DNA from: Escherichia coli
GTDB lineage: Bacteria; Pseudomonadota; Gammaproteobacteria; Enterobacterales; Enterobacteriaceae
Length of the DNA stretch: 64,000 nucleotides
Assembly: GCF_050320075.1 (NCBI RefSeq)
Contig: NZ_CP190018.1
Reading direction: 5' to 3' (one strand)
This document shows, piece after piece, positions 1,789-63,136 of the stretch; the stretch's first letter is position 1, and each line of letters starts with the position of its first letter. The notes under the pieces are model-generated. The model did not search any database. It saw only the letters and a program-made list of their open reading frames with translations, and was not told the DNA's origin. The position numbers and the translations under genes were made by a program.

Positions 1789-2346
1789 TTACGCTTCCTG
1801 CTCTTTCTTGATACGTTGCACCGTCTGTGTGCTGACACTGAAATCTTTTGCTACGCTCCGAATTGATCCACCATTCGCGAGAGCGGCAGCAATTCCTGCT
1901 CGATCAATTGCTTTTCCATTACCACGTTTTGCTATACGTCCAGCGGCCTTAGCTGCGGCGATCCCTTCACGTTGACGCTCAAGCATCATTTCACGTTCCA
2001 TTTGTGCCACTGCTGCAAGCACTGTGAGCATCATATTCCCTGCGGGAGAGTTCTTCCCTGTCTTAAAGTCTTCTTTATGGAAATGCACAGACACGCCGCG
2101 CTCTGTTAATTGCTCAACCGTTGCCAGTAGGTCGGCTGTATTACGGCAAAGTCGATCAATGCTGTGAACATGCAAAACATCACCTTCCCGCACATAGTTC
2201 ATCATTGCCTCAAACTGTGGGCGCTGGGTATTTTTGCCTGACGCTTTATCTTCAAAGACTTTATCAAGAGTTACTCCAGCTAATTGACGGTCTGTGTTTT
2301 GTTGGACAGTCGATACCCTAATGTATCCAATATTAGCCATTTTCAT
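1789..2346 (-). CDS. serine recombinase (resolvase / DNA invertase family)
   Basis: N-terminal IGYIRVSTVQQ catalytic-serine motif, 185 aa, C-terminal helix-turn-helix-like tail; typical small serine recombinase architecture. Confidence 0.85.
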   Translation of the reverse strand: MKMANIGYIRVSTVQQNTDRQLAGVTLDKVFEDKASGKNTQRPQFEAMMNYVREGDVLHVHSIDRLCRNTADLLATVEQLTERGVSVHFHKEDFKTGKNSPAGNMMLTVLAAVAQMEREMMLERQREGIAAAKAAGRIAKRGNGKAIDRAGIAAALANGGSIRSVAKDFSVSTQTVQRIKKEQEA

Positions 2347-3265
2347 TTTCCTTCTGTGTTGATTTGTGTGTAGTGATTATTGATCGTGTTGATTAGGTGT
2401 GTAAAGGACTTTTTTCACTACGAAATTCGAAGGTTTTTAGTGTGGTGATTTAGCCTGCTTTATCACTACACGTCTTGCATGAGAATCATGTAGTTACATT
2501 TTGGTAAAATTAGCAAGCTATTAAATAGTGTGTTTATTTTGAAAAAATAATTTTTTGTTGCATTAAAGGAAACTTGTTCAATAAATGATAGAACGTTTAT
2601 TGAGCAACAATTTTGCAGTGATGCGCTATATGCCGCATTACATAAGGCTTTGCTGATGATAATGTAAAAGTGAAGAAAGCTAACATTGCTCTTTTAAGCT
2701 ACTTTTCATTGAATTTTTAGTATGGAATTACATAGGGATAAACTATGAATATTCTATGATTTACACGAGATATTCTTGCTGTTTAATTCCGGCTTTGGAG
2801 ATCAGGCATTCGCAAGAATACGCTAACGCGTTGCCTGAAAAGCCATTGCACATAATAGAGGTGAGCGTATAGCGAACTATCAATGTGATCATTGCACGAA
2901 TGATAATGAGTGGATATAGATTCTATATATCGTTAGATTGTAGTTTGATAGTTAATGTGTAATGTAGATTGTATGAGCGTATAGCGAATGTTAGTTAGAT
3001 CAACAACAAACTAACCTTTAAATCTCTTTTATCTTCTCATAGATATGGCTATGCGTAGCAACCGAAGGTTAGCCAATCATCTCTATGCAGCCGTAAGGCT
3101 GTTTTGCATGTAATAGTTGTTTGTTGTTGTTAGACAGTTACCAATTTATAGATCAGAGATAGATGTGAGCGTTGAGCGATACACTAATCATAACAACATC
3201 TTCTTACTTTTTAGTTAGTTGTTAGTAGGTTATTGTTATGCGCGCTATTAGCGCATGTATAAAGG

Positions 3266-3371
3266 TATCATTTTTATCTAAAGGGCTTTAGACATTTTTG
3301 ATACCTTTTTCATCTCTAAAAAAGTGTAATTTTTATCTAAAGGGGCTTTAGACATTTTTTACACCTTTTTC
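3266..3371. repeat. two direct copies of a ~45 bp repeat, each with palindromic core TCTAAAGG(G)CTTTAGA
   Basis: Copy 1 ~3266..3311 and copy 2 ~3327..3371 are near-identical; cores at 3277..3292 and 3337..3353; extra TCTAAAG half-sites near 3412 and 3487. Operator- or iteron-like. Confidence 0.6.
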
Positions 3372-3515
3372 TGTGCAAGACACTTACCAGTGTGCACAAT
3401 ACTTATGCTTTTCTAAAGCCGGGAATTTTTAAGTTTGATTGATCAATTGTTAACTTTAAAAGTTACTTTTAACAATCACTTAGACGATCTAAAGCCGCAA
3501 TTAACATAATATAAG

Positions 3516-3545
3516 TTGACATGCAAGCACTTTTTACCGTATAGT
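3516..3545 (+). promoter_or_regulatory. sigma70-like promoter candidate (TTGACA, 18 nt spacer, TATAGT)
   Basis: Perfect -35 hexamer at 3516..3521, -10 TATAGT at 3540..3545; transcription would start at the 23 bp tandem repeat. Confidence 0.4.
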
Positions 3546-3553
3546 GCGGGTTT

Positions 3554-3604
3554 CCTACCTACCCAGGAAATGAGTTCCTACCTACCCAGGAAATGAGTTC
3601 CTAC
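3554..3604. repeat. 23 bp tandem repeat CCTACCTACCCAGGAAATGAGTT, about 2.2 copies
   Basis: Exact copies at 3554..3576 and 3577..3599, partial third copy (CCTAC) following. Confidence 0.75.
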
Positions 3605-4556
3605 AATACTATAATTAAACTACAATTAAACTATCTTTTATAAATTCTTTTATCTTTTAAAGAATAATTATAGGGATACCCGTTAGGGAGTCTTCGACTA
3701 TCCCTTAATCTATTGGCATTCGCCAGAACCTTGCACAAGTTAGACTGATGCTTGTCATAACAGATAGTTTTTGTTTTTTGTTAGTAGTTAGCTGATCTAT
3801 GTTCGCTTTCCGCTCACAACGAATATGTAATCTACTATGTGCAAATAGCCTACGGCTTGCGTATGGCTAATAGTCTTGCGCTGTGCGCAGAACGATAATT
3901 AACTAACTACCATCTAACGATTGAAATTTACTTGTGCAATAACCTGAGCATAAGCGAATGGTTGTTAGTGTCTATGCGCTGTGCGCTTCAATAGTTCCAT
4001 TGATGAGGCTTACGCCAATCTAACGATCATCAATCTATTTAAGAGAAAATCTATTGTGCAATACTCTGACGAGTGCAATAACCTTGTGTGCTACGCGTTA
4101 GCGATGTTAGCACATAGACACAGACAACAACCAACAACAAACAAAAAAGAAAGAATGGTTTTAGTAGTTGAAGGTTAAATAAGTTTCTACCGCTTAAATC
4201 AAGCCGTAGGCGAGCTAAACGTATATAAGGTAGGGAAACACTTAGCGGTAATAGATTAGCTCGTTATAGAGCTTCTGAGGAGCTTTACAGGTATTTTATA
4301 AGATGTCTGAAATCAGAGTTTATCTATCCACCATCTTTCCATCATCTGATAAATCAAAAATAAGCCCCTTAAATAAGCCTCTGACGAGATAAACAACCTC
4401 TACATAAGGGAATGTATTGTTTTTATCAAAACCCCCGTCAGAGTGCGATTGAGAGCGTTTTAGACAACAGGGAAGAATTGTACCAGAGTAGGCAGCACAA
4501 AAAGCTAAGAAAAATTATAAGAAATTGAAAATGATCAAGTTTTTTATAAAAGAGGG

Positions 4557-4585
4557 TTGACAAAGCCGCCGTTATGTAGTATTGT
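4557..4585 (+). promoter_or_regulatory. sigma70-like promoter candidate (TTGACA, 17 nt spacer, TATTGT) for the plus-strand operon
   Basis: -35 at 4557..4562, -10 at 4580..4585; first ORF of a co-directional gene string starts ~115 nt downstream. Confidence 0.5.
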
Positions 4586-4701
4586 AAGTAGGGAGGGGAG
4601 AAACATCTCTCTCCATCTAAATAATCAAATCACAGAACACTGCACTTTGAGCCGTCAGGCTGCAAGGTGTGTTTTTCTTTTATCTAAATAAGGAGTTTTT
4701 T

Positions 4702-4884
4702 ATGAAATGGTATACACCGGAACACGTCGTAGAGGCATTTAAAAAAGGTGAGCTAACACGACATCAAGTAAGGATGAACAGGAACACAGCGCGGCGCTGT
4801 GGTTATCCAGAGCGTGAAAAATGCTTTGACGATGCACTAAAAATTATTGATGAACTGCGTAAGGCAGAAGCAGAGAAAGAATAA
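4702..4884 (+). CDS. hypothetical small protein (60 aa)
   Basis: AGGAG 6 nt upstream of ATG 4702 (MKWYTPEHV...); first gene after promoter 4557. Confidence 0.5.
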   Translation: MKWYTPEHVVEAFKKGELTRHQVRMNRNTARRCGYPEREKCFDDALKIIDELRKAEAEKE

Positions 4885-4907
4885 TAACAGGAGAAGGAGA
4901 AAACCAA

Positions 4908-5084
4908 ATGAATATTAATTTTGATTCTGCAACTTATAACGCGTTGTTAAATCGTGCAAAGGCAGAAGGGAAATCAATTCCAAAACTTGTTAATGAATTA
5001 CTAATTACAGTCCTTACAAAGGAGGAACTAAATGAACCAAAACACCAAAACAATTGCCGAAGCAAAAGCGCAATGCCTCAATAA
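4908..5084 (+). CDS. ribbon-helix-helix-like small DNA-binding protein (58 aa), not in ORF track
   Basis: GGAGAAGGAGA before ATG 4908; MNINFDSATYNALLNRAKAEGKSIPKLVNELL resembles CopG/Arc-type RHH N-terminus; 3-prime end overlaps the next gene by 53 nt in another frame. Confidence 0.45.
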   Translation: MNINFDSATYNALLNRAKAEGKSIPKLVNELLITVLTKEELNEPKHQNNCRSKSAMPQ

Positions 5085-5697
5085 GAAAGATAGTAAACAA
5101 ACATATGTAGTAGTTGAACAATGGCTGAAGATGTTTAAAAAGTGGTTCTCACCGTCAGGTAAGGAATACACCGCGACACTTCCAGCCGTTGAAATCTACA
5201 GTTACGTAGCTGGGTTCAATGAACAAGGGCAAGAATGTTACGCCAATCAAAAAACATTAGCTAATATTGGAATGGTTAGTGATCGTCAGGTGCGTAATAT
5301 TATAAATATGTTTATTGATATGGGTGTTCTTTCTGTAGAGGCACGGGACGGGCAAACATCACTCTATAAAGCATTACCCTTTACAGATGCACACATCACA
5401 CCACCGGAAGACGTAAAAACCTCTGTAAACGTAGAACAGCCTGCACCTGAAACACAGGAACCGTTAGAAGCGACACACTCTATTGAGCAGGAAACACAGG
5501 CAGAAATCACGGAACAATCTGATCTTTTTACATGGCTTATTTCCATAGACAGCCAAAAGCCTATGCAAGAAGAAACAGAAAATTTTATAAAACGTGCACT
5601 GACCTCGAAGAGGATAATTCTTGAAGATGATGCTTTTAATGCACTGATGATAGCCCTGAGAAAAGAAAGTGAAATCTATGACTCAATACCATTTTAA
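5032..5697 (+). CDS. hypothetical protein with winged-helix-like N-terminus and acidic C-terminus; possible replication initiator or organiser
   Basis: Strong AAGGAGGA before ATG 5032; segment ANQKTLANIGMVSDRQVRNIINMFIDMGVLS resembles winged-helix DNA-binding domains of phage/plasmid Rep-type proteins. Assignment is by resemblance only. Confidence 0.45.
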   Translation: MNQNTKTIAEAKAQCLNKKDSKQTYVVVEQWLKMFKKWFSPSGKEYTATLPAVEIYSYVAGFNEQGQECYANQKTLANIGMVSDRQVRNIINMFIDMGVLSVEARDGQTSLYKALPFTDAHITPPEDVKTSVNVEQPAPETQEPLEATHSIEQETQAEITEQSDLFTWLISIDSQKPMQEETENFIKRALTSKRIILEDDAFNALMIALRKESEIYDSIPF

Positions 5698-5709
5698 GGA
5701 GAATAAAAA

Positions 5710-5967
5710 ATGAAATACAACCTGACATTAAACAAACGAACATTCGAAATTACAGAAAGCGGCTACACACTGGCAAAACAGCTTGCTGATAGCAATTATG
5801 AGCTACCCGCGATTATCAGCTTTCAGGAGTTACCTCATAGTAAAGAACACACACAGCACTGGTTAAATCACCTGAGCCATTTTGGGGTAATTAAGTATGA
5901 GGCTGTGAATAGTCAGACGTTCCGTTTGCTTGAGATAAGCCCTTTCGAATTGTGGGTGGCGCTGTGA
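5710..5967 (+). CDS. hypothetical protein (85 aa)
   Basis: ORF track; GGAG upstream; co-directional operon member. Confidence 0.5.
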   Translation: MKYNLTLNKRTFEITESGYTLAKQLADSNYELPAIISFQELPHSKEHTQHWLNHLSHFGVIKYEAVNSQTFRLLEISPFELWVAL

Positions 5968-6170
5968 CCATATTCGATAGCGAATTTTCACAAGAAACCT
6001 TTCTGCAATATTTACGGGAAAGAACGGGAATGATTCTGTTTGATTCTGAGTTTTCCGGTGTGGTAGGTGAGCAATTTTTATATGCTCTTCTCGATAGCCT
6101 AAGTAAACAAGGATTATTGCAGTATACCAAAACTCATATGAAAGCATTCAGAATCGACTCTGTAGCTTAA
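5952..6170 (+). CDS. hypothetical protein (72 aa, GTG start) with internal FDSEFS...FL.Y.L duplication
   Basis: ORF track; start codon is GTG overlapping the upstream stop; internal ~45 nt direct repeat at DNA level. Confidence 0.3.
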   Translation: MGGAVTIFDSEFSQETFLQYLRERTGMILFDSEFSGVVGEQFLYALLDSLSKQGLLQYTKTHMKAFRIDSVA

Positions 6171-6206
6171 AACAAACAACTATCAAACATCTTGAAGGGT
6201 GAAACA

Positions 6207-6347
6207 ATGGAAAGCTTAATATTTTTCTTAGTATTTATGATCGCTTCCTTTTTTAACACTGCAACAAGAAAAACAAAACGAAGGGGAAGCAATGAGCAAG
6301 AAAAAAGGCAAGAAAAACGTAATAACAACTATTGGCGAAGCATGTGA
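6207..6347 (+). CDS. candidate small single-pass membrane peptide (46 aa), not in ORF track
   Basis: ATG 6207 after AAGGG; MESLIFFLVFMIASFF hydrophobic helix then a basic tail (RKTKRRGS...); overlaps the start of ORF 6292 in another frame, so only one of the two may be real. Confidence 0.25.
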   Translation: MESLIFFLVFMIASFFNTATRKTKRRGSNEQEKRQEKRNNNYWRSM

Positions 6348-6672
6348 TCAGTATGCGTTAAACAATCCTCGCAAATATAATTATGAGCATGATGCACAAC
6401 CAGGCGAGGAATTGATCTTTATACTTGAAGAACCAAGCCCAGAATTAACAGACGAAGAATTATCACTCATTCAAAGTATGGACGGTGTTTACTTTAATCC
6501 GCGCCCACGCAAAACAACGGTTATAGATTCCAGTCTTCTGAAAAGATGGCAGTGTTTGGGTTTTCAGGATATGCACCACTTTAGGGGGTATATGGCTCTT
6601 AACAGTCTGCAATATGCAGGGGTGAGAGAAACCGAATTACTTCTGCTTGATAAAATAAAAATCGACGATTAA
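6292..6672 (+). CDS. hypothetical protein (126 aa)
   Basis: ORF track; AAGGGGA 5 nt upstream of ATG. Confidence 0.5.
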   Translation: MSKKKGKKNVITTIGEACDQYALNNPRKYNYEHDAQPGEELIFILEEPSPELTDEELSLIQSMDGVYFNPRPRKTTVIDSSLLKRWQCLGFQDMHHFRGYMALNSLQYAGVRETELLLLDKIKIDD

Positions 6673-6713
6673 CAGCGTTTGCTGAATATAACCCTTAACA
6701 AAAGGAAAATAAA

Positions 6714-6935
6714 ATGATTAACAAAGCAATTTTAGAGACAACCACTTTTCACGATCTTAAACTTCTTTCTGAATGCTTCATAAGCCTGATTGAACGTGCA
6801 CAGGAAGAAAACGATCTCGGTTTACTCGATGATATTATAGACAACATTGCAACTTATAAAATCCCGCTCACTATTGCTATGAAGAAAGCTCGTGAAGCAC
6901 AACAACAATTAGAACAATCAGAGGAAGTGGCATAA
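6714..6935 (+). CDS. hypothetical protein (73 aa)
   Basis: ORF track; AAGGAAA before ATG; co-directional. Confidence 0.45.
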   Translation: MINKAILETTTFHDLKLLSECFISLIERAQEENDLGLLDDIIDNIATYKIPLTIAMKKAREAQQQLEQSEEVA

Positions 6936-7243
6936 TGAGCGAAGTACACAACGTAACTATTGAAATGATGGATCTGGTTATTGATTTACAGAAAGCAGTA
7001 AACGCGGCTCTGACTTTTCCAAGCGAGCTAACCATCACACAGGCGGTTATTAATCTGGAATCGACGCGGGAAGCACTGCAACTACTTATTGCAGCGTGCG
7101 AAGAGAGCGAAGGTGCACAGATTGAAGCTGATGACCTTTCTAATCTGATCATCGTCATTCATGACACCACTGAAATCATGAAAGAAGCGGTAGCAGATCT
7201 GCAACCCCTCATTAATGAATTAATCGATAAGGCTAACAACTAA
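6935..7243 (+). CDS. hypothetical acidic protein (102 aa)
   Basis: ORF track; start overlaps upstream stop (ATAATG), suggesting translational coupling. Confidence 0.5.
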   Translation: MSEVHNVTIEMMDLVIDLQKAVNAALTFPSELTITQAVINLESTREALQLLIAACEESEGAQIEADDLSNLIIVIHDTTEIMKEAVADLQPLINELIDKANN

Positions 7244-7452
7244 TGTCAAAAACTAAACGTGTGCGCCTTCTGGCGCTCACAGAAGAAGGGAAAGCGGGTA
7301 ATTGTTTCACAGTAGGTAAAGTGTATACCGGCTTACTCGACACTTACACCCGCCTGATGCACGTAACCGATGATAACGGTAACGATCAAACAATCGTTTT
7401 AGATGGTAATTGCGTATTTGGTGAGTGGGAACTGACAACCGAAAAAAGTTGA
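7243..7452 (+). CDS. hypothetical protein (69 aa)
   Basis: ORF track; start overlaps upstream stop (TAATG). Confidence 0.5.
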   Translation: MSKTKRVRLLALTEEGKAGNCFTVGKVYTGLLDTYTRLMHVTDDNGNDQTIVLDGNCVFGEWELTTEKS

Positions 7453-7471
7453 AAATAATTGCATTTACCTA

Positions 7472-7500
7472 TTGACTTTTACTAACAGAAATGTTAGAAT
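7472..7500 (+). promoter_or_regulatory. near-consensus sigma70 promoter (TTGACT, 17 nt spacer, TAGAAT)
   Basis: -35 at 7472..7477, -10 at 7495..7500; followed by ~820 nt without any ORF of 60 codons or more on the plus strand. Confidence 0.55.
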
Positions 7501-7506
7501 AATAAA

Positions 7507-8291
7507 TGTTGGGTTTGGAATCGAAAATAGGTGTTAGCTGGCGTTAATCCTTCTCCCGATTCTAATCCTACACGAAAGCGGGGTAGACCTCAAGGGGTCG
7601 CGCCCTATCTAACCTATCCCGCTTTCCCTTTACAGTGATTTTTTAGAAATTGTTTCCCTCGTTAATAGTTTCATTTTATTTTCCTTATTGCTTTATCAAA
7701 ATTGTGTCTTAAGAATGCAGGGGCTACGGATTTGGCCCCTCATCTTTTTAACCAACTGCGAAGCATGAAACACTTTCTAAAAACACTGTTTACAGTGTCT
7801 ATAAACCCCGTATAAACAAATAACGGTGTATATCTGTTTCTTGACAACAGTTTTCTACTAAGCTTAAAGCTGAATATGTTTTTGTTTGTTGGTGTTTATT
7901 AAGGTGCCAATCTTAGAACGCGAAAGCGTGGATGATCCCCGAAATCATCTCGGCACCGCCTCCTATTAAAATGAGAATCCAAAAGGTTTGAAAGTTAATA
8001 GGTGATTCCTGAAAGTCTGATCGATGCATCCACATTGTGAAAGACAGCGATTAGCCGTCGCACGAATAACAGGTTTATAGATTCCTCTCCAAAGGGGGCG
8101 ACCTCCTAAGCGCCTACTCCCTGTAAGCCTGTTATTCACCCCTCAAGGGTATATAACAATAAGCAATCTTATTCTTATATGTCCTCCTCTTTAAGTTCAT
8201 ATAAACTGCGATTTAGTAACACTCTATAACATCCTTCAAATGTTGTATTCATAAAGCCGGAAGCTTTCCCCTTCCGGTTTTATTTTTATCA
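7507..8291 (+). ncRNA. candidate structured leader or noncoding RNA region
   Basis: ORF-poor; stem-loops at 7575..7626 (GAAAGCGGG / CCCGCTTTC), 7719..7749 (AGGGGC, 10 nt loop, GCCCCT then T-run) and 8065..8136 (AATAACAGG / CCTGTTATT); ends at terminator 8257..8291. Boundaries and function are inferred. Confidence 0.3.
8257..8291 (+). terminator. rho-independent terminator-like hairpin (CCGGAAG, loop, CTTCCGG, then T-run)
   Basis: Inverted repeat with following TTTTATTTTTAT, just upstream of the 8331 ORF. Confidence 0.5.
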
Positions 8292-8330
8292 GCACTAAAC
8301 AAGACTGTTAGGAATAAAGGTAAAGCAATA

Positions 8331-8546
8331 ATGCAAAATCTCATTCTAAAGAATGGTAACGAAGAATTGGTTATCACTGATGAAACATTCAATGCTACGG
8401 CTTATATGCTGGGGATCACTCCCACAGAATTGAAAAAACATTGTGATAAGCTTTTTAAGTCTGCTGATGAACAGAAACCTACTATGCAGGATCTGATTAA
8501 AGCAAAAGCAGAACAAATCAAACAATCCAAAAAAGGAAACTATTAA
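8331..8546 (+). CDS. hypothetical protein (71 aa)
   Basis: ORF track; immediately precedes the capsid-like gene pair. Confidence 0.5.
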   Translation: MQNLILKNGNEELVITDETFNATAYMLGITPTELKKHCDKLFKSADEQKPTMQDLIKAKAEQIKQSKKGNY

Positions 8547-8548
8547 TT

Positions 8549-8920
8549 ATGGCTATTATTAATATGAGCGATCTGTTTCCAGTTCGCAAATCATTTACCG
8601 ATATCGTTTCATATGCAACTGATGAGTTCGGTTGTGTGCAATCTTTTACCGTTGATCTGGCGGTTGATGTTGAATGCGGCGATCTGATTACCAGTGACGG
8701 CGCTGAATATGTAAGCGGCGGCGATGTTCTTGTAGTTGTGTCTGATGCGGTATCCGCTGGCGACGCTAAAACCGTTAACGTGCTGCGTAGCAATGCCGGA
8801 CTGGTTTGCATCAAGTCCGATGCTCTGAATGTTGAAGGCGCTGTGAAAGAAGCTGCTATTGCTGCCCTGGCTGCAAAAGGTTTCCAGATGGCTGGTTTTA
8901 ACACTGTATTCACATCTTAA
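8549..8920 (+). CDS. putative virion structural protein (123 aa), possibly head-decoration-like
   Basis: Small Gly/Ala/Val-rich protein directly upstream of and coupled to the 342 aa gene; codon usage is strongly biased toward highly-expressed E. coli codons. Resemblance to a lambda D-type decoration protein is by size and arrangement only. Confidence 0.4.
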   Translation: MAIINMSDLFPVRKSFTDIVSYATDEFGCVQSFTVDLAVDVECGDLITSDGAEYVSGGDVLVVVSDAVSAGDAKTVNVLRSNAGLVCIKSDALNVEGAVKEAAIAALAAKGFQMAGFNTVFTS

Positions 8921-8938
8921 TATAAAGGAATAAAAATA

Positions 8939-9967
8939 ATGATTATTGGTAATGAATCCGTCGATCTGGCTCCGCTGTTTAGTCTGCACGACTCTCGCAA
9001 CTTCCTGTTAACTTCTCTCGACTTTACTGATCCGGTAGGTGTGAGTTCTCATAAAGTGGCTGTTAGCCAACTGGTGGAAACTAACGAATCTCTGTTCAAC
9101 AAAGAAACCTCTCGTTTCTCTTCTGAACATAACGTGACTAAACGTGAACAGGGTAAAGAATTTTTAGTAGAGATCCCCTACTTCCTGCGTGAAGATATGA
9201 TTAAGCCGCAAGACGTGCAAGGCAAACGTAAACCAGGCGCTACCGTTGAAGAAACTCTGACAGATATCTACGCGGAATATGTTGCTAAGCACCACATTGC
9301 TTTCCAGCGTACTAAAGAAAGCGTGCTGGCTGCTTCCCTGTTCTCTGGTCGCACTTACACCCCTAAAACTGATGATGTGCTGATCCAGTGGGGCGATCTG
9401 TTTAGTGTTGTTCCGATGACTGCAACCATCGACGCATCAAGCACCACGCCTTCTATGGTGTTCCAGCAATTCGATCAGATGCATACAGACGTTATTACTA
9501 AAGCACAAAGCCAGGCGGCTGCTGTAGAACGTATCGTTGTATTCTGTAAACCTGCTGCTTTCAACGCTATCCGTTACAGTGCTGGCATGGTTAACGCGTT
9601 CCAGTATGCAAGCCCTACCGATGACGCAAACATCGTTTATAGCGTGCGCTCCCTGCTGCCAGGTGTGACTACCTTCACTATTCCTGGGACTAACATCGAT
9701 ATCGTTAAAGTTACTGATCCGCTGCTGCTGGCTCATATGACTTCTGATGCGGTTGCTGTTCCGAAGTTCGCTAAAGGCTCTAACGTCTATCAGAACATTT
9801 TCAGCGCTCCTTCTTCAACGTTCGACCTGCTGAATTCTGGCGCGGCTGAATATTACAGCTATGCGTTTAGCCCAGCACGTAACGACGCTGTAAACGTAGT
9901 TACTGAGAATAGCCAGATGGTTGTAAACCACGGCGTAGGCTTCACTGTACAGATCACAGTAGCGTAA
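8939..9967 (+). CDS. putative major capsid-like protein (342 aa)
   Basis: Size and position (after a ~120 aa protein) resemble a lambda D/E-type head gene pair; AAGGAA RBS; codons strongly optimised (CGT, CTG, TCT, AAC, GAA) unlike neighbouring genes. Not confirmed by homology. Confidence 0.45.
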   Translation: MIIGNESVDLAPLFSLHDSRNFLLTSLDFTDPVGVSSHKVAVSQLVETNESLFNKETSRFSSEHNVTKREQGKEFLVEIPYFLREDMIKPQDVQGKRKPGATVEETLTDIYAEYVAKHHIAFQRTKESVLAASLFSGRTYTPKTDDVLIQWGDLFSVVPMTATIDASSTTPSMVFQQFDQMHTDVITKAQSQAAAVERIVVFCKPAAFNAIRYSAGMVNAFQYASPTDDANIVYSVRSLLPGVTTFTIPGTNIDIVKVTDPLLLAHMTSDAVAVPKFAKGSNVYQNIFSAPSSTFDLLNSGAAEYYSYAFSPARNDAVNVVTENSQMVVNHGVGFTVQITVA

Positions 9968-10120
9968 TAAAGCGTTAATAGTCGTTTCCTGTGCGACTGG
10001 AAATAAAACAGGCAATAAGGGCAAAAGGGATTATTAAACCTGTAGCGCAAATACAGTAAACAATCTCTTTTGCCCTTTTTTCGTTTATACCGTCTATTAA
10101 AATATTGTGAGAGAAAAATC

Positions 10121-10312
10121 ATGAGCGAACAAAACAACAATCCAGTTGAGATCCTGAAAGCTGTTTCCACCTTACCGGAAGATATTCTGAATATCTCTCA
10201 AGTGTGTAAGTTTTTAGGGATCTCTAATACTGCTGTACGTCAAAGAATCTTCACTACTGGCTGCTCAGCTATGGAAGCAGTGCAATACTACGTAACAAAA
10301 CAAAACAAATAA
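10121..10312 (+). CDS. hypothetical small protein (63 aa), possible HTH
   Basis: Internal ATG of ORF 10070..10312 (MSEQNNNPVEIL...); segment ISQVCKFLGISNTAVRQRI is helix-turn-helix-like. Confidence 0.35.
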   Translation: MSEQNNNPVEILKAVSTLPEDILNISQVCKFLGISNTAVRQRIFTTGCSAMEAVQYYVTKQNK

Positions 10313-10330
10313 AAGGTAAAGGAAAATATT

Positions 10331-12172
10331 ATGGATTTAAACATCTCAACCTTAACAAACAAGGTTGTATTTAAAGTTGATTTTGCATCATTACAGAAAG
10401 CAAGGGACGCAGGGAAGAAATTTCAGAAAGAAATGGAAAACCTAACCAATCCAACATTGAAAGGGAAGAAGGCTAAACGAGCTATAGACGAGGCTCATGA
10501 TCTGGTAAAGGCTCGTAAAGCTGCACAGGCTAAAACTGATGCCAAAGCGTCAGACAAGCAAGCTCAAACCGATAAGAAGAACGCTGATAAGGTGGCAAAG
10601 GCAGAAGCTAAAGCGAAGGCTAAAGCCGCTATAGCTGCCGATAAACAGATCCGCGCTAAAGCGACAATAGCAGAGAAAGCAGAGATTAAGCGCCAGCAAG
10701 CTTTCAGACAGCTTGAAGGGATTAAGAAAGGGCGTATGGGCGACGGTATGGACTCCGCCCAATACTACAAAACGTTGCAATACATCAAAGCACAAACGGC
10801 AGCGTATGAGAAAGGCGCTATTAGTCAGGCTAAGATGAATCACCTGATCCGTGATCGTATCACGTTAGAACGCCGTGCGGCTGCTGTAAAAGCTCGCCAG
10901 GTGGCGGCTGATGGCGGTAAATATCCACATATGGCTAAACAGCTTAAAGGCGGTCATATAGGCGGTGGTGTAGGTGCAATGGTGGGCGGTGCCGCTCTCA
11001 CTGCTGCCACTCTCGGCGGTGCTGCGATATTCAATACCGTAACCGATCAGGCAAGCAAGATCACAGACACTAACCGCAAGGCAAAGGCTGTCAACGTAAA
11101 CACTAACGCCCTGTTAGCACTTAATCAGTACGGCTTAGAACACGGTGTCGATAGTTCCGTAGACCAACGTCAAGACAACCTTAAAGACGTTCAAGAGCGT
11201 TTAGGTGAATCCGTAGGGAATACCAAATGGGACGCTAAGAAAGGTCGCTGGGCTGGCGGTAATGGTGCCGTCGATAACATCCTTAATAAATATGGTTGGA
11301 GTCCTGAACAGATTAAAGGTTTCCAGACTGATCCATTAGGTTTCCTGGGCGCTGTAGTGAAAGAAGGAGAACGCCGTGGACTCTCTGATCAGGAGCAGGG
11401 TCACATCCTTGAAGACCTTGGAAATGATTTACAATATTTCCGTGGTGCTTTCAGTCGTAACGGTGAAGAGCTAAATAAAACCATCGTTAAGATGCAAAAA
11501 GCCAATGCCACCTATGCGCAAGCGGATCTTGACGCTGCTGAACGTCTGCAAGCTGTACAGGCTAATATGAATATGGCCTGGGAAGGTAGTAAGAAAGCTA
11601 TCATGACGGGATTCGGTGAAGAGTTCGACGCTCAGGCTGGTGAAGAGTGGGCGCAAATGTTGAAAGATCTCAATCCTCTGTTTAAAGAACTTGGAAGCTC
11701 AACGGCTGAAATGATGAGCGCCTTTGCTGGTGCTGTATCGTGGCTTACTGCTGCATACCAGAATATAAATCCAGAGAACAAACATGAAAACCTTGATTCG
11801 TCCGGTATGTATTATAAGGATTCGTTTGTAGGCGGCATGGTTGATTGGGGTCGTAGTGCTTTAGGCTTATCGCCTATCCCTGGCACGGAAGACAAGCCAA
11901 CGACTGGCGGAACTGCAATTCAGAACTATTCAAGCCCGTCCGATAACGTGCAATCCCTGAAAGAGAACGTTAGCCGTGATCTGAACACTACCCCATCTAT
12001 GACGTATGCGCCAAGCATTGTCGTAAACGTGCCAGAAAGTAAGGTTGATGTGAATATCGCTCCTGATGGTAGTCAGCTTGGATCATACCTCGATTACAAA
12101 GTGGGAAGTATCCAACAAGATTTTGAACGTAGTTTCACGTTGGCGGCTCTGTCTGGGCAAGCACCAAGTTAA
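10331..12172 (+). CDS. large coiled-coil / glycine-zipper protein (613 aa); tape-measure-, scaffold- or DNA-pilot-like
   Basis: Lys/Ala-rich coiled-coil stretch (KAKAKAAIAADKQIRAKATIAEKAEIKRQQ), then glycine-zipper hydrophobic segment GGHIGGGVGAMVGGAALTAATLGGAAIF. Function inferred from composition only. Confidence 0.5.
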   Translation: MDLNISTLTNKVVFKVDFASLQKARDAGKKFQKEMENLTNPTLKGKKAKRAIDEAHDLVKARKAAQAKTDAKASDKQAQTDKKNADKVAKAEAKAKAKAAIAADKQIRAKATIAEKAEIKRQQAFRQLEGIKKGRMGDGMDSAQYYKTLQYIKAQTAAYEKGAISQAKMNHLIRDRITLERRAAAVKARQVAADGGKYPHMAKQLKGGHIGGGVGAMVGGAALTAATLGGAAIFNTVTDQASKITDTNRKAKAVNVNTNALLALNQYGLEHGVDSSVDQRQDNLKDVQERLGESVGNTKWDAKKGRWAGGNGAVDNILNKYGWSPEQIKGFQTDPLGFLGAVVKEGERRGLSDQEQGHILEDLGNDLQYFRGAFSRNGEELNKTIVKMQKANATYAQADLDAAERLQAVQANMNMAWEGSKKAIMTGFGEEFDAQAGEEWAQMLKDLNPLFKELGSSTAEMMSAFAGAVSWLTAAYQNINPENKHENLDSSGMYYKDSFVGGMVDWGRSALGLSPIPGTEDKPTTGGTAIQNYSSPSDNVQSLKENVSRDLNTTPSMTYAPSIVVNVPESKVDVNIAPDGSQLGSYLDYKVGSIQQDFERSFTLAALSGQAPS

Positions 12173-12228
12173 TGATAAAGAGAATGTTTAATCACCATTT
12201 AAAACACTCTTATAAGGAATTAAGCATA

Positions 12229-12259
12229 TAAGAGGCTCCCATTACAAGGAAGCCTCTTT
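12229..12259. terminator. bidirectional terminator-like hairpin between convergent 613 aa gene and integrase
   Basis: Inverted repeat AGAGGCT(CC) ... (GGA)AGCCTCT flanked by A/T-rich runs. Confidence 0.4.
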
Positions 12260-12279
12260 ATTGCGCCTATGGCGTTGTT

Positions 12280-13441
12280 TTAAGCCTTAAAATCAATATT
12301 TAATTCATATCTTACTAATTCTACATATTCAGCTAATTCTGGAATGCTTGCCCCTTGTGAGTAGGTGCGAAAGGCTTCTGTTTTAGCTCTCTGCTCTGTA
12401 TGTCCGGTAATGGCACCGATCCGCTGTTCAGGCACTCCGGCACGATCAAGACAAGTGATAAACATCCCGCGCAAGCTGTGAAAGCATTGTCTATTTGTAG
12501 CGATTGGCAAGACGCTACGACGTAAACGTGAGAACGCTTGAGAATAGAACGGGCCTTTCTTACCGTCGATTCTTTTTACTTTGTTCGAGTGAGGGAACAA
12601 ATATTCACCATAATTATGATTTAAATATTCATCGACAATAATCGATAGTCTCGAATGTATCGGAACGTGCCTGATCCCTGCTTTAGTCTTACTTTTGCTG
12701 ATATAAAAACAGCGTATTCCTTCCACAGTTACAACCTCTGACTTTTTCAGACTTGCCAGTTCGTCTAATCTGCATCCTGAAAACAAGCCCATTAAAATAA
12801 TATTTCTGATCTCCGGCTCCGCTGCATCAAGTAGCTTTTGCATTTGTTCAGGTGTAAACGGTTGATAACTCTCGATTGTGCGACGTGCTTCGAGATTATG
12901 ACCGTGAAAAGGGTTACTGTCTGGTATTCCGTCATAACGGCGTTTAGCAAATTCATAGAGCGATCCTAAGCATGTAAGCCAGTTTTGACGAGATTGATCG
13001 GCTGCTCCTCGTTGCTTCTGGTCATCTAAGAATACTGTTACAAGCCGTCTGCCTATTTTCTCAATATGAATATCATCTTTCTGAATGCTTTGTAAAAATA
13101 GCTCAACGGCCCTTGCTGATTTCTGTAGTGTTGAGTATGAACGACGCTCTCTGTAGCATTCGGCGTATTCGTCACGTATTAAGCATAGGGAAGGCGATGC
13201 ATAACCGCGTTTTACGGCTCTTTGCGTGTTTTTATTGGCCCTTGCCTCTGAATGTAAGGATTCAATAGCTTGTTGTAACCTCCTTTCGGGGTTATCAGGA
13301 TTATGTTTCCGCTTTAGTTCCTCCCATTCTAATAATAGATGGTTTCTGAATCTTCTCGCCTCATTCAGATCTCGTGTAGATGTGCTTTTTCTCCACAACT
13401 TGTAAGGGTAAAGATGACGTAAGTATTTAGGAACAAAAATC
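12280..13441 (-). pseudogene. tyrosine recombinase / integrase with 5-prime end disrupted by IS1
   Basis: C-terminal catalytic motifs of tyrosine recombinases (R in GCRLDEL, HSLRGMF, GHTEQ...FRTYSQG). The ORF's first 5 codons (to 13455) lie inside the IS1 inverted repeat, so the native start and promoter are missing. Confidence 0.8.
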
Positions 13442-13496
13442 GGTGATGCTGCCAACTTACTGATTTAGTGTATGATGGTGTTTTTGAGGTGCTCCA

Positions 13497-13772
13497 GTGG
13501 CTTCTGTTTCTATCAGCTGTCCCTCCTGTTCAGCTACTGACGGGGTGGTGCGTAACGGCAAAAGCACCGCCGGACATCAGCGCTATCTCTGCTCTCACTG
13601 CCGTAAAACATGGCAACTGCAGTTCACTTACACCGCTTCTCAACCCGGTACGCACCAGAAAATCATTGATATGGCCATGAATGGCGTTGGATGCCGGGCA
13701 ACCGCCCGCATTATGGGCGTTGGCCTCAACACGATTTTCCGCCATTTAAAAAACTCAGGCCGCAGTCGGTAA
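13497..13772 (+). CDS. insA: IS1 InsA
   Basis: 91 aa product matches remembered IS1 InsA ([32 protein letters not shown]...). Confidence 0.95.
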
Positions 13773-14194
13773 CCTCGCGCATACAGCCGGGCAGTGACGT
13801 CATCGTCTGCGCGGAAATGGACGAACAGTGGGGATACGTCGGGGCTAAATCGCGCCAGCGCTGGCTGTTTTACGCGTATGACAGGCTCCGGAAGACGGTT
13901 GTTGCGCACGTATTCGGTGAACGCACTATGGCGACGCTGGGGCGTCTTATGAGCCTGCTGTCACCCTTTGACGTGGTGATATGGATGACGGATGGCTGGC
14001 CGCTGTATGAATCCCGCCTGAAGGGAAAGCTGCACGTAATCAGCAAGCGATATACGCAGCGAATTGAGCGGCATAACCTGAATCTGAGGCAGCACCTGGC
14101 ACGGCTGGGACGGAAGTCGCTGTCGTTCTCAAAATCGGTGGAGCTGCATGACAAAGTCATCGGGCATTATCTGAACATAAAACACTATCAATAA
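13691..14194 (+). CDS. insB: IS1 InsB reading frame (expressed as InsAB by frameshift)
   Basis: 167 aa ORF overlapping insA in the -1 frame, typical IS1 organisation. Confidence 0.9.
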
Positions 14195-29087: not shown

Positions 29088-29798
29088 GCACAGAAAACCC
29101 CCAGCTAGGCTGGGGGTTCCGGAAAGCTTTCAGCTTTGAGCCAGTTATTCAAACCCCTTTTGATTTGTTAAAACACCTTGCGGTCTGGCAACTGCAAGTG
29201 TCAAACAAGAAATCAAAAGGGGGTCCCAATGGGGGACGAAAAGAGCTTAGCGCACACCCGCTGGAACTGTAAATATCACATAGTTTTTGCGCCGAAATAC
29301 CGAAGACTGGCGTTTTACGGAGAGAAGCGTAGGGCGATAGGCAGTATTTTGAGAAAGCTGTGTGAGTGGAAAAGCGTACGGATTCTGGAAGCAGAGTGCC
29401 GCGCAGATCATATCCATATGCTTGTGGAAATCCCACCCAAAATGAGCGTATCCGGCTTTATGGGATATCTGAAAGGGAAAAGCAGTCTGATGCTTTACGA
29501 GCAGTTTGGGGATTTGAAATTCAAATACAGAAACAGGGAGTTCTGGTGCCGAGGGTACTATGTCGATACGGTGGGTAAGAACACGGCGAAGATACAGGAC
29601 TACATAAAGCACCAGCTTGAAGAGGATAAAATGGGGGAGCAGTTATCGATTCCATATCCGGGCAGCCCGTTTACGGGCCGTAAGTAACGAAGTTGAATGC
29701 AAATGTCAGATCGTATGCGCCTGTTAGGGCGCGGCTGGTAACAGAGCCTTACAGGCGCATTTGAAAAACCTCCGGCTATGCCGGAGGATATTTATTCG
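29088..29798 (+). mobile_element. IS200-like insertion element (IS200/IS605 family), boundaries approximate
   Basis: Subterminal hairpins at both ends (AAAACCCCCAGCTAGGCTGGGGG at 29098..29116; AAAACCTCCGGCTATGCCGGAGG at 29769..29787) flank a Y1 transposase gene; ~710 bp. Confidence 0.7.
29229..29687 (+). CDS. tnpA: IS200 transposase TnpA (HuH/Y1 family)
   Basis: 152 aa from MGDEKSLAHTRWNCKYHIVFAPKYRR; HIHMLVEIPPK HuH motif. Confidence 0.9.
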   Translation: MGDEKSLAHTRWNCKYHIVFAPKYRRLAFYGEKRRAIGSILRKLCEWKSVRILEAECRADHIHMLVEIPPKMSVSGFMGYLKGKSSLMLYEQFGDLKFKYRNREFWCRGYYVDTVGKNTAKIQDYIKHQLEEDKMGEQLSIPYPGSPFTGRK

Positions 29799-34135: not shown

Positions 34136-34217
34136 CCCAGAGGTATTGATAGGTGAAGTCAACTTCGGGTTGAGCACATGAATTACACCAGCCTGCGCAG
34201 ATGCGCAGGTTTTTTTT
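34136..34217 (+). ncRNA. omrB: OmrB small regulatory RNA
   Basis: CCCAGAGGTATTGATAGGTGAAGTCAACTTCGGGTTGAGCAC... ending in GCGCAGATGCGCAGG hairpin plus T-run. Confidence 0.9.
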
Positions 34218-34332
34218 TGCCGGTCATCAATCTGTAACAGTAACCGACAATTTACACACCTCGTTGCATTTCCCTTCATTCCTTTGCGTTTTCTCACTGG
34301 CGAAGAGTCGTCGTGCAGACCACAATCAAGAT

Positions 34333-34420
34333 CCCAGAGGTATTGATTGGTGAGATTATTCGGTACGCTCTTCGTACCCTGTCTCTTGCACCAACCTGCG
34401 CGGATGCGCAGGTTTTTTTT
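34333..34420 (+). ncRNA. omrA: OmrA small regulatory RNA
   Basis: CCCAGAGGTATTGATTGGTGAGATTATTCGGTACGCTCTTCGTACC... ending in GCGCGGATGCGCAGG hairpin plus T-run; paralogue of OmrB. Confidence 0.9.
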
Positions 34421-62840: not shown

Positions 62841-62917
<77 letters not shown>

Positions 62918-62949
62918 TCACCGTACTGCTTTATTTCATCAAATTTGAT

Positions 62950-63026
<77 letters not shown>

Positions 63027-63059
63027 TCACCGTACTGCTTTACTTCATCAAATTTTAAT

Positions 63060-63136
<77 letters not shown>

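Follow-up and report, generated by a model that had tools for sequence, protein, structure and literature searches.

The window analysed here, a stretch of 64,000 nucleotides (nt), is a segment of the Escherichia coli chromosome (NCBI RefSeq assembly GCF_050320075.1, contig NZ_CP190018.1) with 100% identity to strain YZLc1-3. It holds an integrative, satellite-like island of about 12 kb, and our analysis concerns an interval of this island without substantial open reading frames (ORFs), positions 7,453 to 8,330, which lies between a replication/regulation module and a capsid module. The gap is best read as a single transcription unit, running on the plus strand from ~7507 to ~8291, whose product would be a highly structured non-coding RNA of ~790 nt. 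The RNA does not code for protein, it folds on the plus strand into several domains, it contains one internal and one terminal hairpin with the anatomy of a terminator, and its position in front of the capsid genes is conserved. For comparison, 5,426 complete E. coli genomes and a collection of 50,697 phage records were surveyed, further types of the gap were obtained from scans of genomes, metagenomes and viral contigs, and the layout of promoter, leader and terminator was inspected in 14 representative island loci.

A predicted non-coding transcription unit in front of the capsid genes

The preliminary description of this sequence had reported no substantial ORF in the interval, and our analysis agrees: the longest ORFs in 7501..8295 measure 37 aa on the plus strand and 57 aa on the minus strand, and neither is conserved. 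A conserved coding ORF, the observation that had been proposed as evidence against a non-coding unit, was looked for among the relatives compared, and none was found. Strand, frame, position and length of the ORFs in the gap vary even between close relatives; because of this variation, protein coding can, judging by the sequences, be regarded as excluded for practical purposes.

The promoter described earlier (TTGACT, a spacer of 17 nt, TAGAAT) is present and additionally has a TG extended -10, so that a transcription start near 7507 is expected. A match to the consensus is not unusual by itself, as three promoter-like sites were found in 3 kb versus 6.7 expected from shuffles. The leader promoter is nevertheless credible, because a near-consensus promoter occupies the same place in all 14 representative loci. 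A second copy of it in E. coli, for example a prophage pR', was searched for and rejected; no similar promoter occurs elsewhere in the E. coli genomes surveyed or in the phage records. The palindrome CTAACA-N4-TGTTAG overlaps the spacer and the -10 hexamer, and in the allele of two further loci (L021 and L068; ATAACA-N4-TGTTAT) both of its arms have changed together. From its sequence and position, this palindrome is likely the operator of a dimeric repressor, which suggests repressor control of the promoter rather than constitutive firing. A related half-palindrome, AAACA-AGAC-TGTTA, lies between the terminal terminator and the first late ORF, and the two could constitute a two-site operator. 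The promoter-proximal 70 nt (7462-7532) show 76-100% identity among island variants and are far more variable than the rest of the RNA.

Two hairpins that had been noted as terminator-like, one downstream of the promoter and one just before the structural genes, were both recovered and are designated T1 and T2 (Table 1). Each consists of a G+C-rich hairpin and a U-run on the appropriate strand and is kept in relatives. T1 is found at the equivalent place in three types of the gap (those of the window, of strain H22 and of locus L006) with three unrelated stems. T2 ends about 40 nt before the first ORF of the capsid module, and 11 of the 14 representative loci have a recognisable pre-capsid terminator, again with differing stems, among them a lineage with a short leader and a clade of Citrobacter and Enterobacter islands; the terminator of locus L009 is also visible directly. 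We infer from this anatomy that T1 and T2 are intrinsic terminators at which transcription would actually end. A scan of the plus strand over 4400..12400 yielded one further hairpin followed by U before the end of the module, a weak one at 8612-8638 inside the 123-aa ORF, and downstream of T2 the only promoter-like sequence, at 8909, matches weakly (9/12). The order of promoter, leader and capsid module is the same in 14 of 14 loci, the short-leader lineage (~230-340 nt) included.

The start of the first late ORF may also be contacted by the leader itself. The segment 8321-8337, with ribosome-binding site and ATG, is 88% complementary to the U-rich segment 7679-7695 upstream of T1 (inverted repeat I2), with 11 contiguous base pairs in the window. 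The same U-rich segment is complementary to 8151-8166, just after the 3' domain, and the best duplex between leader and start region falls in the homologous region in most types. The pairing is statistically weak, with shuffled start regions doing as well in 4-62% of trials; being marginally better than shuffles, it is treated here as a lead only.

Structure and covariation of the RNA

The plus-strand RNA 7507..8295 folds with -234 kcal/mol and a z-score of -12.1 against shuffles, compared with -3.5 for the minus strand. Two stem-loops had been recognised before in the gap; both are present (7574..7626 and 8064..8137), belong to the minimum-energy fold and correspond to inverted repeats I10 and I3. 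All hairpins of the preliminary description therefore exist, and what it underestimated is the extent of the structure, which comprises a covarying multi-domain RNA of ~0.8 kb.

In the 5' domain, a helix encloses a conserved block that contains a small hairpin and a CU-rich tail. The 5' arm of this hairpin varies (UUAGC, UUAGU, UUGAC) without loss of pairing to the invariant GUUAA; the enclosing helix has other sequences in the H22 and L006 types and is still predicted. The long hairpin that follows is more variable, its stem being GAAAGCGGG/CCCGCUUUC in the window and AUGGAAGGU/ACCUUCCAU in the L006 type. Changes in it within the window type are wobble-compatible, and the hairpin is absent in H22.

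A long-range helix then brackets a U-rich region (region A) and T1. Its arms form inverted repeat I1 and are 94% complementary, it is part of the minimum-energy fold and of the RNAalifold consensus, and it was predicted independently with differing sequences in four types (window, L003, L005 and H22). It does not appear in the folds of L006 and L007, and the fold of L059 shows part of it only. Since the 3' arm of this helix lies downstream of T1, RNA that has read through the terminator would be under selection wherever the helix forms. The branched middle element does not vary within the window type, and other sequence stands in its place in the H22 and L006 types.

The strongest evidence for a selected structure comes from the conserved 3' domain of 181 nt. 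Four divergent types fold independently into the same architecture of four helices (H1 to H4), in which H4 has 16-17 bp, an apical loop YCCUAAGMG and, across the types, four unrelated stem sequences. A covariance-model search had been suggested as a check; our model of this domain (R1) found 27 loci at E <= 2e-25, and no Rfam model matched. Among 15 distinct sequences, 93.8% of the cells in the predicted pairs can pair versus 33-49% in slid controls, 18 of 41 pairs have changed on both sides versus a shuffle mean of 12.9 (one of 500 shuffles reached 18), and the covariation score is 0.41 versus 0.16 in shuffles. The alignment used for these counts (A8) was fitted to the model, yet each type folds alone into the same helices. 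Island lineages that can barely be aligned thus hold the same helices through compensatory changes. In addition, G·U pairs occupy 39 cells in these helices versus 6 for A·C, an excess which indicates that the folded molecule is the plus strand. Among 13 window-type variants, nearly all changes in predicted helices are wobble-compatible, and variation is concentrated in the linkers and the first 30 nt. A hammerhead or K-turn in H2 (CUGAU...GAAA) was considered and rejected, the motif not being conserved in the H22 or L006 types.

Downstream of this domain, a G-poor, weakly structured spacer upstream of T2 contains a CU-rich motif; other types have the related CCUCCUCAAAG or UCCUCUUAUAG in this position, and the L008 type, with its short leader, has CUCCUCCUUAAG. 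On our reading, this motif resembles boxA and the anti-Shine-Dalgarno sequence of 16S rRNA.

Table 1. Features of the transcription unit and of its surroundings in the window.
Feature	Position	Strand	Details
Sigma-70 promoter	7472..7500	+	-35 TTGACT 7472-7477; 17-nt spacer; TG extended -10; -10 TAGAAT 7495-7500
Palindrome	7482..7497		CTAACA-N4-TGTTAG
5' domain	7515..7565	+	enclosing helix 7515-7523 with 7557-7565
Conserved 5' block	7530-7556		GGUGUUAGCUGGCGUUAAUCCUUCUCC; core GUUAAUCCUUCU
Hairpin of 5' block	7533-7548		GUUAGC-UGGC-GUUAAU
Variable long hairpin	7574..7626	+	inverted repeat I10
Long-range helix	~7633-7656 with 7767-7790	+	around region A and T1
Internal intrinsic terminator T1 (putative)	7713..7749	+	hairpin 7719-7740, extendable to 7713-7744, then UUUUU; U-run to 7749
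Branched middle element	7904..7956	+	closing pair GGUGCC/GGCACC; GAAA-capped hairpin 7917-7930; second hairpin 7931-7952
Conserved 3' domain	7961..8141	+	181 nt, four helices
Helix H1	7962-7969 with 7995-8002		
Helix H2	8015-8018 with 8042-8045, 8022-8026 with 8033-8037		invariant loop CAUCCA 8027-8032
Helix H3	8047-8050 with 8058-8061		
Helix H4	8064-8080 with 8121-8137		internal AUUCC; apical stem 8097-8100 with 8111-8114; loop ACCUCCUAAG 8101-8110
CU-rich motif	8183..8195	+	CCUCCUCUUUAAG
Terminal intrinsic terminator T2 (putative)	8251..8291	+	13-bp stem 8251-8283, then UUUUAUUUUU; U-run to 8291
Operator-like site	8297-8310		AAACA-AGAC-TGTTA
Junction to late genes	8297..8333	+	ribosome-binding site AGGAAUAAAGG; ATG of 71-aa ORF at 8331
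Island	2346-13455		
Repeat-rich ORF-free stretch	2346-4669		2.3 kb
Early promoter	4557-4585	+	TTGACA-17-TATTGT; at end of ORF-free stretch
Replication-initiator-like protein	5032-5697		PHROG matches
Major capsid protein	8939-9967		PF03864
Tape-measure-like protein	10331-12172		613 aa
IS1B copy	13468-14194		
STnc490	29096-29219		
OmrA and OmrB	34136-34420		
Three tandem tRNA-Met genes	62841-63136		

Distribution and relatives of the RNA

The window-type gap was found in 63 of the 5,426 E. coli genomes at 72-100% identity, and in 59 of these most of the gap is present, at 88-100%. Another 282 genomes have detectable sequence of a related type (L006/L013), and in 101 of them at least 80% of this type is present. 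Detectable parts of the RNA occur in approximately 6% of complete E. coli genomes, strains of O26:H11 and O104:H4 among them. In strain H22, only ~150 nt align by BLAST, yet an ORF-free gap of ~860 nt is still found at the same place. The contig of locus L006 (JAEWTL010000083.1) is labelled 'MAG: Bacillota bacterium' yet carries an island of the E. coli type, and its RNA is 99.9% identical to that of E. coli strain SF-088; the contig is probably mis-binned.

Outside such islands, phages and plasmids were searched by BLAST with the entire gap, with its promoter region and with its 3' half, which gave chance matches only, and no phage record has a match of 20 nt or more to the gap. No Rfam family, including GOLLD, ROOL, OLE, HEARO and raiA, reached its gathering score in the gap, and at E <= 10 over 7300..8500 nothing credible was obtained, the best hit being a eukaryotic long non-coding RNA model at E = 0.14. 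The structured RNA family, absent from Rfam, appears to be undescribed, and so do its internal terminator within a long-range helix, the 181-nt domain and the host island, for which literature searches, like those for the RNA, returned no paper describing either. Two kinds to which the RNA can be compared are already known, namely late leaders that contain terminators and large non-coding RNAs associated with phages.

The association between the RNA and the genes behind it is informative as well. Four loci from IMG/VR (L059, L060, L063 and L065) carry an RNA ~90% identical to the L006 type, and tblastn with the window capsid found no match in the capsid module downstream of it; in L059, the RNA lies at 8365-9265 and a capsid-like ORF at 9906-10937. 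These sequences indicate that island modules are exchanged at or next to the RNA. Because the RNA remains ~90% identical while the capsid module is swapped, it would belong to the control region and not to one capsid. A sister lineage (L008 and L038, e.g., L038 5061-5405) has capsids that are 76-77% identical and a leader of only ~230-340 nt, in which the promoter, the CU-rich CUCCUCCUUAAG and one terminator are kept and the large RNA domains are absent. In islands of Citrobacter, Enterobacter and Pseudenterobacter, the corresponding position is taken by a leader of their own, which is ORF-free, ~600 nt long, mosaic and conserved (L009 5740-6390; L010 5730-6365; L011 5690-6400; L048-L058), and some of these leaders have a hairpin loop AAUCUCCUAAGAUA like the apical loop of H4. 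The covariance model of the 3' domain matched neither these nor the short-leader islands, so that homology between the leader families is unproven.

The host island

Judging by its gene content, the host element appears to be a satellite-like island that encodes a capsid and has not been described before. Its core genes share one direction: behind the early promoter follow small regulators, the replication-initiator-like protein and several small ORFs, then the ORF-free gap, a 71-aa ORF, a 123-aa ORF, the major capsid protein and the tape-measure-like protein, and the integrase is encoded on the opposite strand. The island lacks genes for a portal and a terminase. The capsid and tape-measure-like proteins have 24-31% identity to their nearest phage relatives, which are those of lytic myophages of ~150 kb (Phapecoctavirus and Justusliebigvirus) and not lambdoid. 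In other strains, the island site lies between tRNA-Gly/actS and yqeG.

A second ORF-free stretch, of 2.3 kb, precedes the early operon and contains iteron-like TGAGCGTATAGCGAA in four copies, TTCCTACCTACCCAGGAAATGAG in two and a unit of ~45 nt in two; it is probably an origin and regulatory region. A copy of IS1B is annotated directly beside the integrase gene in strain YZLc1-3. Elsewhere, the window holds ordinary chromosomal RNA genes, namely STnc490, OmrA, OmrB and three tRNA-Met genes.

Discussion

The reading that we favour, and to which we give an even chance, is that this RNA is a new structured-RNA family serving as the terminator-gated late leader of the island's capsid operon. In this model, the operator-bearing sigma-70 promoter would fire into the leader, and most polymerases would stop at T1, releasing an RNA of ~240 nt, or at T2. 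The two terminators would jointly insulate the capsid module from the leader promoter and from the co-oriented early operon, and capsid genes would be made only upon terminator read-through. Transcripts that pass the terminators could form the long-range helix around T1 and the four-helix 3' domain, and the leader structures would act in cis, either as a platform for read-through (antitermination) or by setting the stability or translation of the late mRNA. Read-through control and a cis role of the 3' domain are what we infer from several features: the positions of promoter and terminators, the kept layout, the recurrence of T1, the z-score of -12.1, the covariation of the 3' domain and the lack of a conserved ORF. 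As the arrangement of promoter, leader, terminator and capsid genes is kept across loci, control of termination and read-through is its natural reading. Several observations weigh against it. No antiterminator protein or RNA element was identified in the island, and the small proteins encoded upstream have no family matches in Pfam, PHROG or NCBIfam. A conserved 181-nt domain with invariant loops is more than a plain leader would need, and the existence of short-leader islands without the 3' domain means that the function of this domain may be separate from gating. In addition, the capsid gene could have a promoter of its own in the weak match at 8909.

In lambda, a strong promoter (pR'), an early terminator (tR') and a long leader precede the structural genes, and the preliminary description had proposed a late leader of this pR'/qut/tR' logic. 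Of that proposal, the non-coding structured unit with two terminators between the promoter and the structural genes stands, and the lambda logic does not. For the latter to hold, the promoter region would have to be a mimic of qut and T1 the equivalent of tR', with the Q protein captured from a lambdoid helper and read-through only in its presence, which we consider highly improbable. A strong promoter closely followed by an intrinsic terminator (within ~240 nt) and a long ORF-free leader upstream of the structural genes is indeed what such a system would show, and the promoter-proximal 70 nt are the most variable part among variants otherwise 88-100% identical, as if the specificity of a regulator diversified. 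However, reading the sequences of all types by eye revealed no -10-like pause element that is conserved in the region transcribed first: GAAAAT (7522-7527) of the window is lost in close variants (CGAAAC, CGAAAT), and the recurring TATAGG or TAGGGG downstream of the -10 lacks the essential final T. None of the ten island proteins tested was recognisable as Q-like or N-like. The absence of a related promoter in phages or elsewhere in E. coli, structural proteins closest to those of large lytic myophages, and a palindrome over the -10 that points toward a repressor tell against Q as well. As for N/nut, for which the reference was a CGCUCUUUA-like boxA followed by a boxB hairpin with a GNRA-like pentaloop, boxA-like CCUCUUUAAG occurs at 8186-8195 and CGCUCUUA inside T1 of the L006 type, and no adjacent hairpin of the boxB type was seen. 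It is possible, if on the unlikely side, that the RNA instead stands alone, as in the independent regulatory RNA that the preliminary description had named as an alternative, and acts in trans on mRNAs or proteins of helper, host or island, in the way of the SviR RNA of PLE satellites or the ~800-nt RNA of phage ICP1. The acting species would be the full ~790 nt, the ~240-nt T1 product or both; T2 would then be its plain terminator, placed before the capsid genes incidentally. RNAs of this sort are known from satellites and from their helpers (PMC7567579; bioRxiv 10.1101/2022.04.08.487710). The near-consensus promoter and strong terminator of its own fit this role, and invariant loops (CAUCCA, AUUCC twice, YCCUAAGMG) on freely changing stems are the pattern of recognition surfaces. 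Many Hfq-binding small RNAs of enterobacteria consist of a U-rich stretch and then a terminator hairpin; the T1 product has this order, and its anatomy is compatible with an Hfq-dependent small RNA. The conserved CU-rich segments are also complementary to GGA-type ribosome-binding sites of the island, although such complementarity is expected of any CU-rich sequence and no specific target stands out. An antisense seed in the 5' block (UCCUUCUCC) against the ribosome-binding site of ORF 4908 (GGAGAAGGA) was rejected: despite a 9-bp match, the site is conserved without the 5' block and shows no compensatory change, and the ribosome-binding site GGAGAAGGAG is equally conserved in islands lacking the block. 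Pairing with the start of the first late gene exceeds shuffles only marginally, no stretch of 20 nt or more matches a phage record, and a trans-acting RNA leaves unexplained the terminator directly before the capsid module in nearly all representative loci. Both roles, in trans and as a terminator-gated leader, could coexist.

Two further explanations do without a functional RNA of this kind. The gap might be a DNA-level element, such as a packaging (cos/pac) site, a replication origin or a single-strand initiation signal. Lambda cos is located in ORF-free DNA upstream of the head genes, the very position of the gap, and an island without a terminase would need a packaging site recognised by its helper. 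The segment 8093-8104 (AGGGGGCGACCT) resembles lambda cosN (GGGCGGCGACCT) with two mismatches, yet such matches occur at chance level (two in the window versus 3.55 expected), and this 12-mer sits in a loop and stem replaced in other types; the similarity was accordingly discarded. The excess of G·U over A·C fits a single plus strand and not duplex or cruciform DNA, folding is strongly strand-asymmetric, promoter and both terminators are all in plus orientation, and the iteron-like repeats, possible marks of an origin, lie in the other ORF-free stretch. The gap is therefore probably not a DNA-level site, and we hold the reading of it as one to be a long shot. Still weaker is the case for small protein genes hidden in the gap, for instance a 35-aa ORF with a GTG start (7531-7638) over the conserved 5' block, which we find scarcely credible. 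Small ORFs do exist there, and the block is, on our reading of the sequences, partly readable in frame in several types. However, the length, frame and presence of a start codon vary by type (35 aa, 18 aa, none, 24 aa), a Shine-Dalgarno sequence at workable spacing is lacking, substitutions in the block track hairpin pairing rather than codon positions, and RefSeq annotates no gene in the gap in any genome fetched, of the window type or the L006/L013 type.

Compared with known systems, the RNA combines traits of several. It shares with lambdoid late leaders (pR'-qut-tR' and its 6S RNA) the strong promoter, the early terminator, the ORF-free leader and the further terminators before late genes, and, like StxS of Stx phages, a short terminated RNA would be its default product; it differs from them in lacking a conserved pause element, a Q gene and sequence similarity, and in having a palindromic operator, a covarying multi-domain leader and myophage-like structural proteins. 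As with put of HK022 and EAR of Bacillus, a structured leader RNA precedes terminators whose read-through would be required for expression of a long operon. Those elements measure ~70-120 nt and have defined two-hairpin or pseudoknot folds; going by their descriptions, the island RNA is set apart by having one terminator upstream of its conserved domain. With GOLLD, ROOL, the ~800-nt RNA of ICP1 and the IIR/SviR RNA of PLE, it has in common a size of ~0.8 kb, its own promoter and a location among late genes, within an ORF-free gap of an element related to phages. The ICP1 RNA occupies an ORF-less gap of 1 kb and is ornate and of unknown function (PMC7567579). The island RNA has no similarity to GOLLD, ROOL or other Rfam families and, unlike the known large RNAs of phages and satellites, contains an internal terminator, is fixed at the boundary between early and capsid genes and has so far been found only in Escherichia-type islands. 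Finally, the CI RNA, the immunity RNA of satellite P4 (one of the C4-type antisense RNAs, as in P1, P7 and N15), is processed from the leader of the very operon under its control, likewise an untranslated leader after a strong promoter, where premature termination silences downstream genes, and the pairing of 7679-7695 with 8151-8166 and 8321-8337 recalls the seqA/B/C layout of P4, if statistically unconvincingly. In contrast, the C4 and CI models of Rfam did not match in 7300..8500 at E <= 10, the genes controlled here encode a capsid and not replication, and the island RNA is about ten times the size of CI RNA.

A bolder proposal, which we put forward as unlikely, is that the RNA represents a new class of large ornate functional RNA active in the conflict between satellite and helper. 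The 181-nt domain would then be a protein-independent element of processive antitermination, similar to put and far larger, or its UCC-rich invariant loops would capture ribosome-binding sites of helper or island, and the host would be one of a group of undescribed capsid-encoding satellites of large lytic E. coli phages. These loops resemble the anti-Shine-Dalgarno sequence of 16S rRNA.

E. coli is the best-annotated organism, and yet RefSeq carries no feature under a structured RNA of ~0.8-0.95 kb. In the island, the RNA sits at the control point where early genes give way to capsid genes. Insight into terminator read-through would reveal how the island senses its helper and times capsid production, and the domain in which loops are invariant and stems change freely offers a clean, testable candidate for a regulatory device of a new, RNA-based kind.

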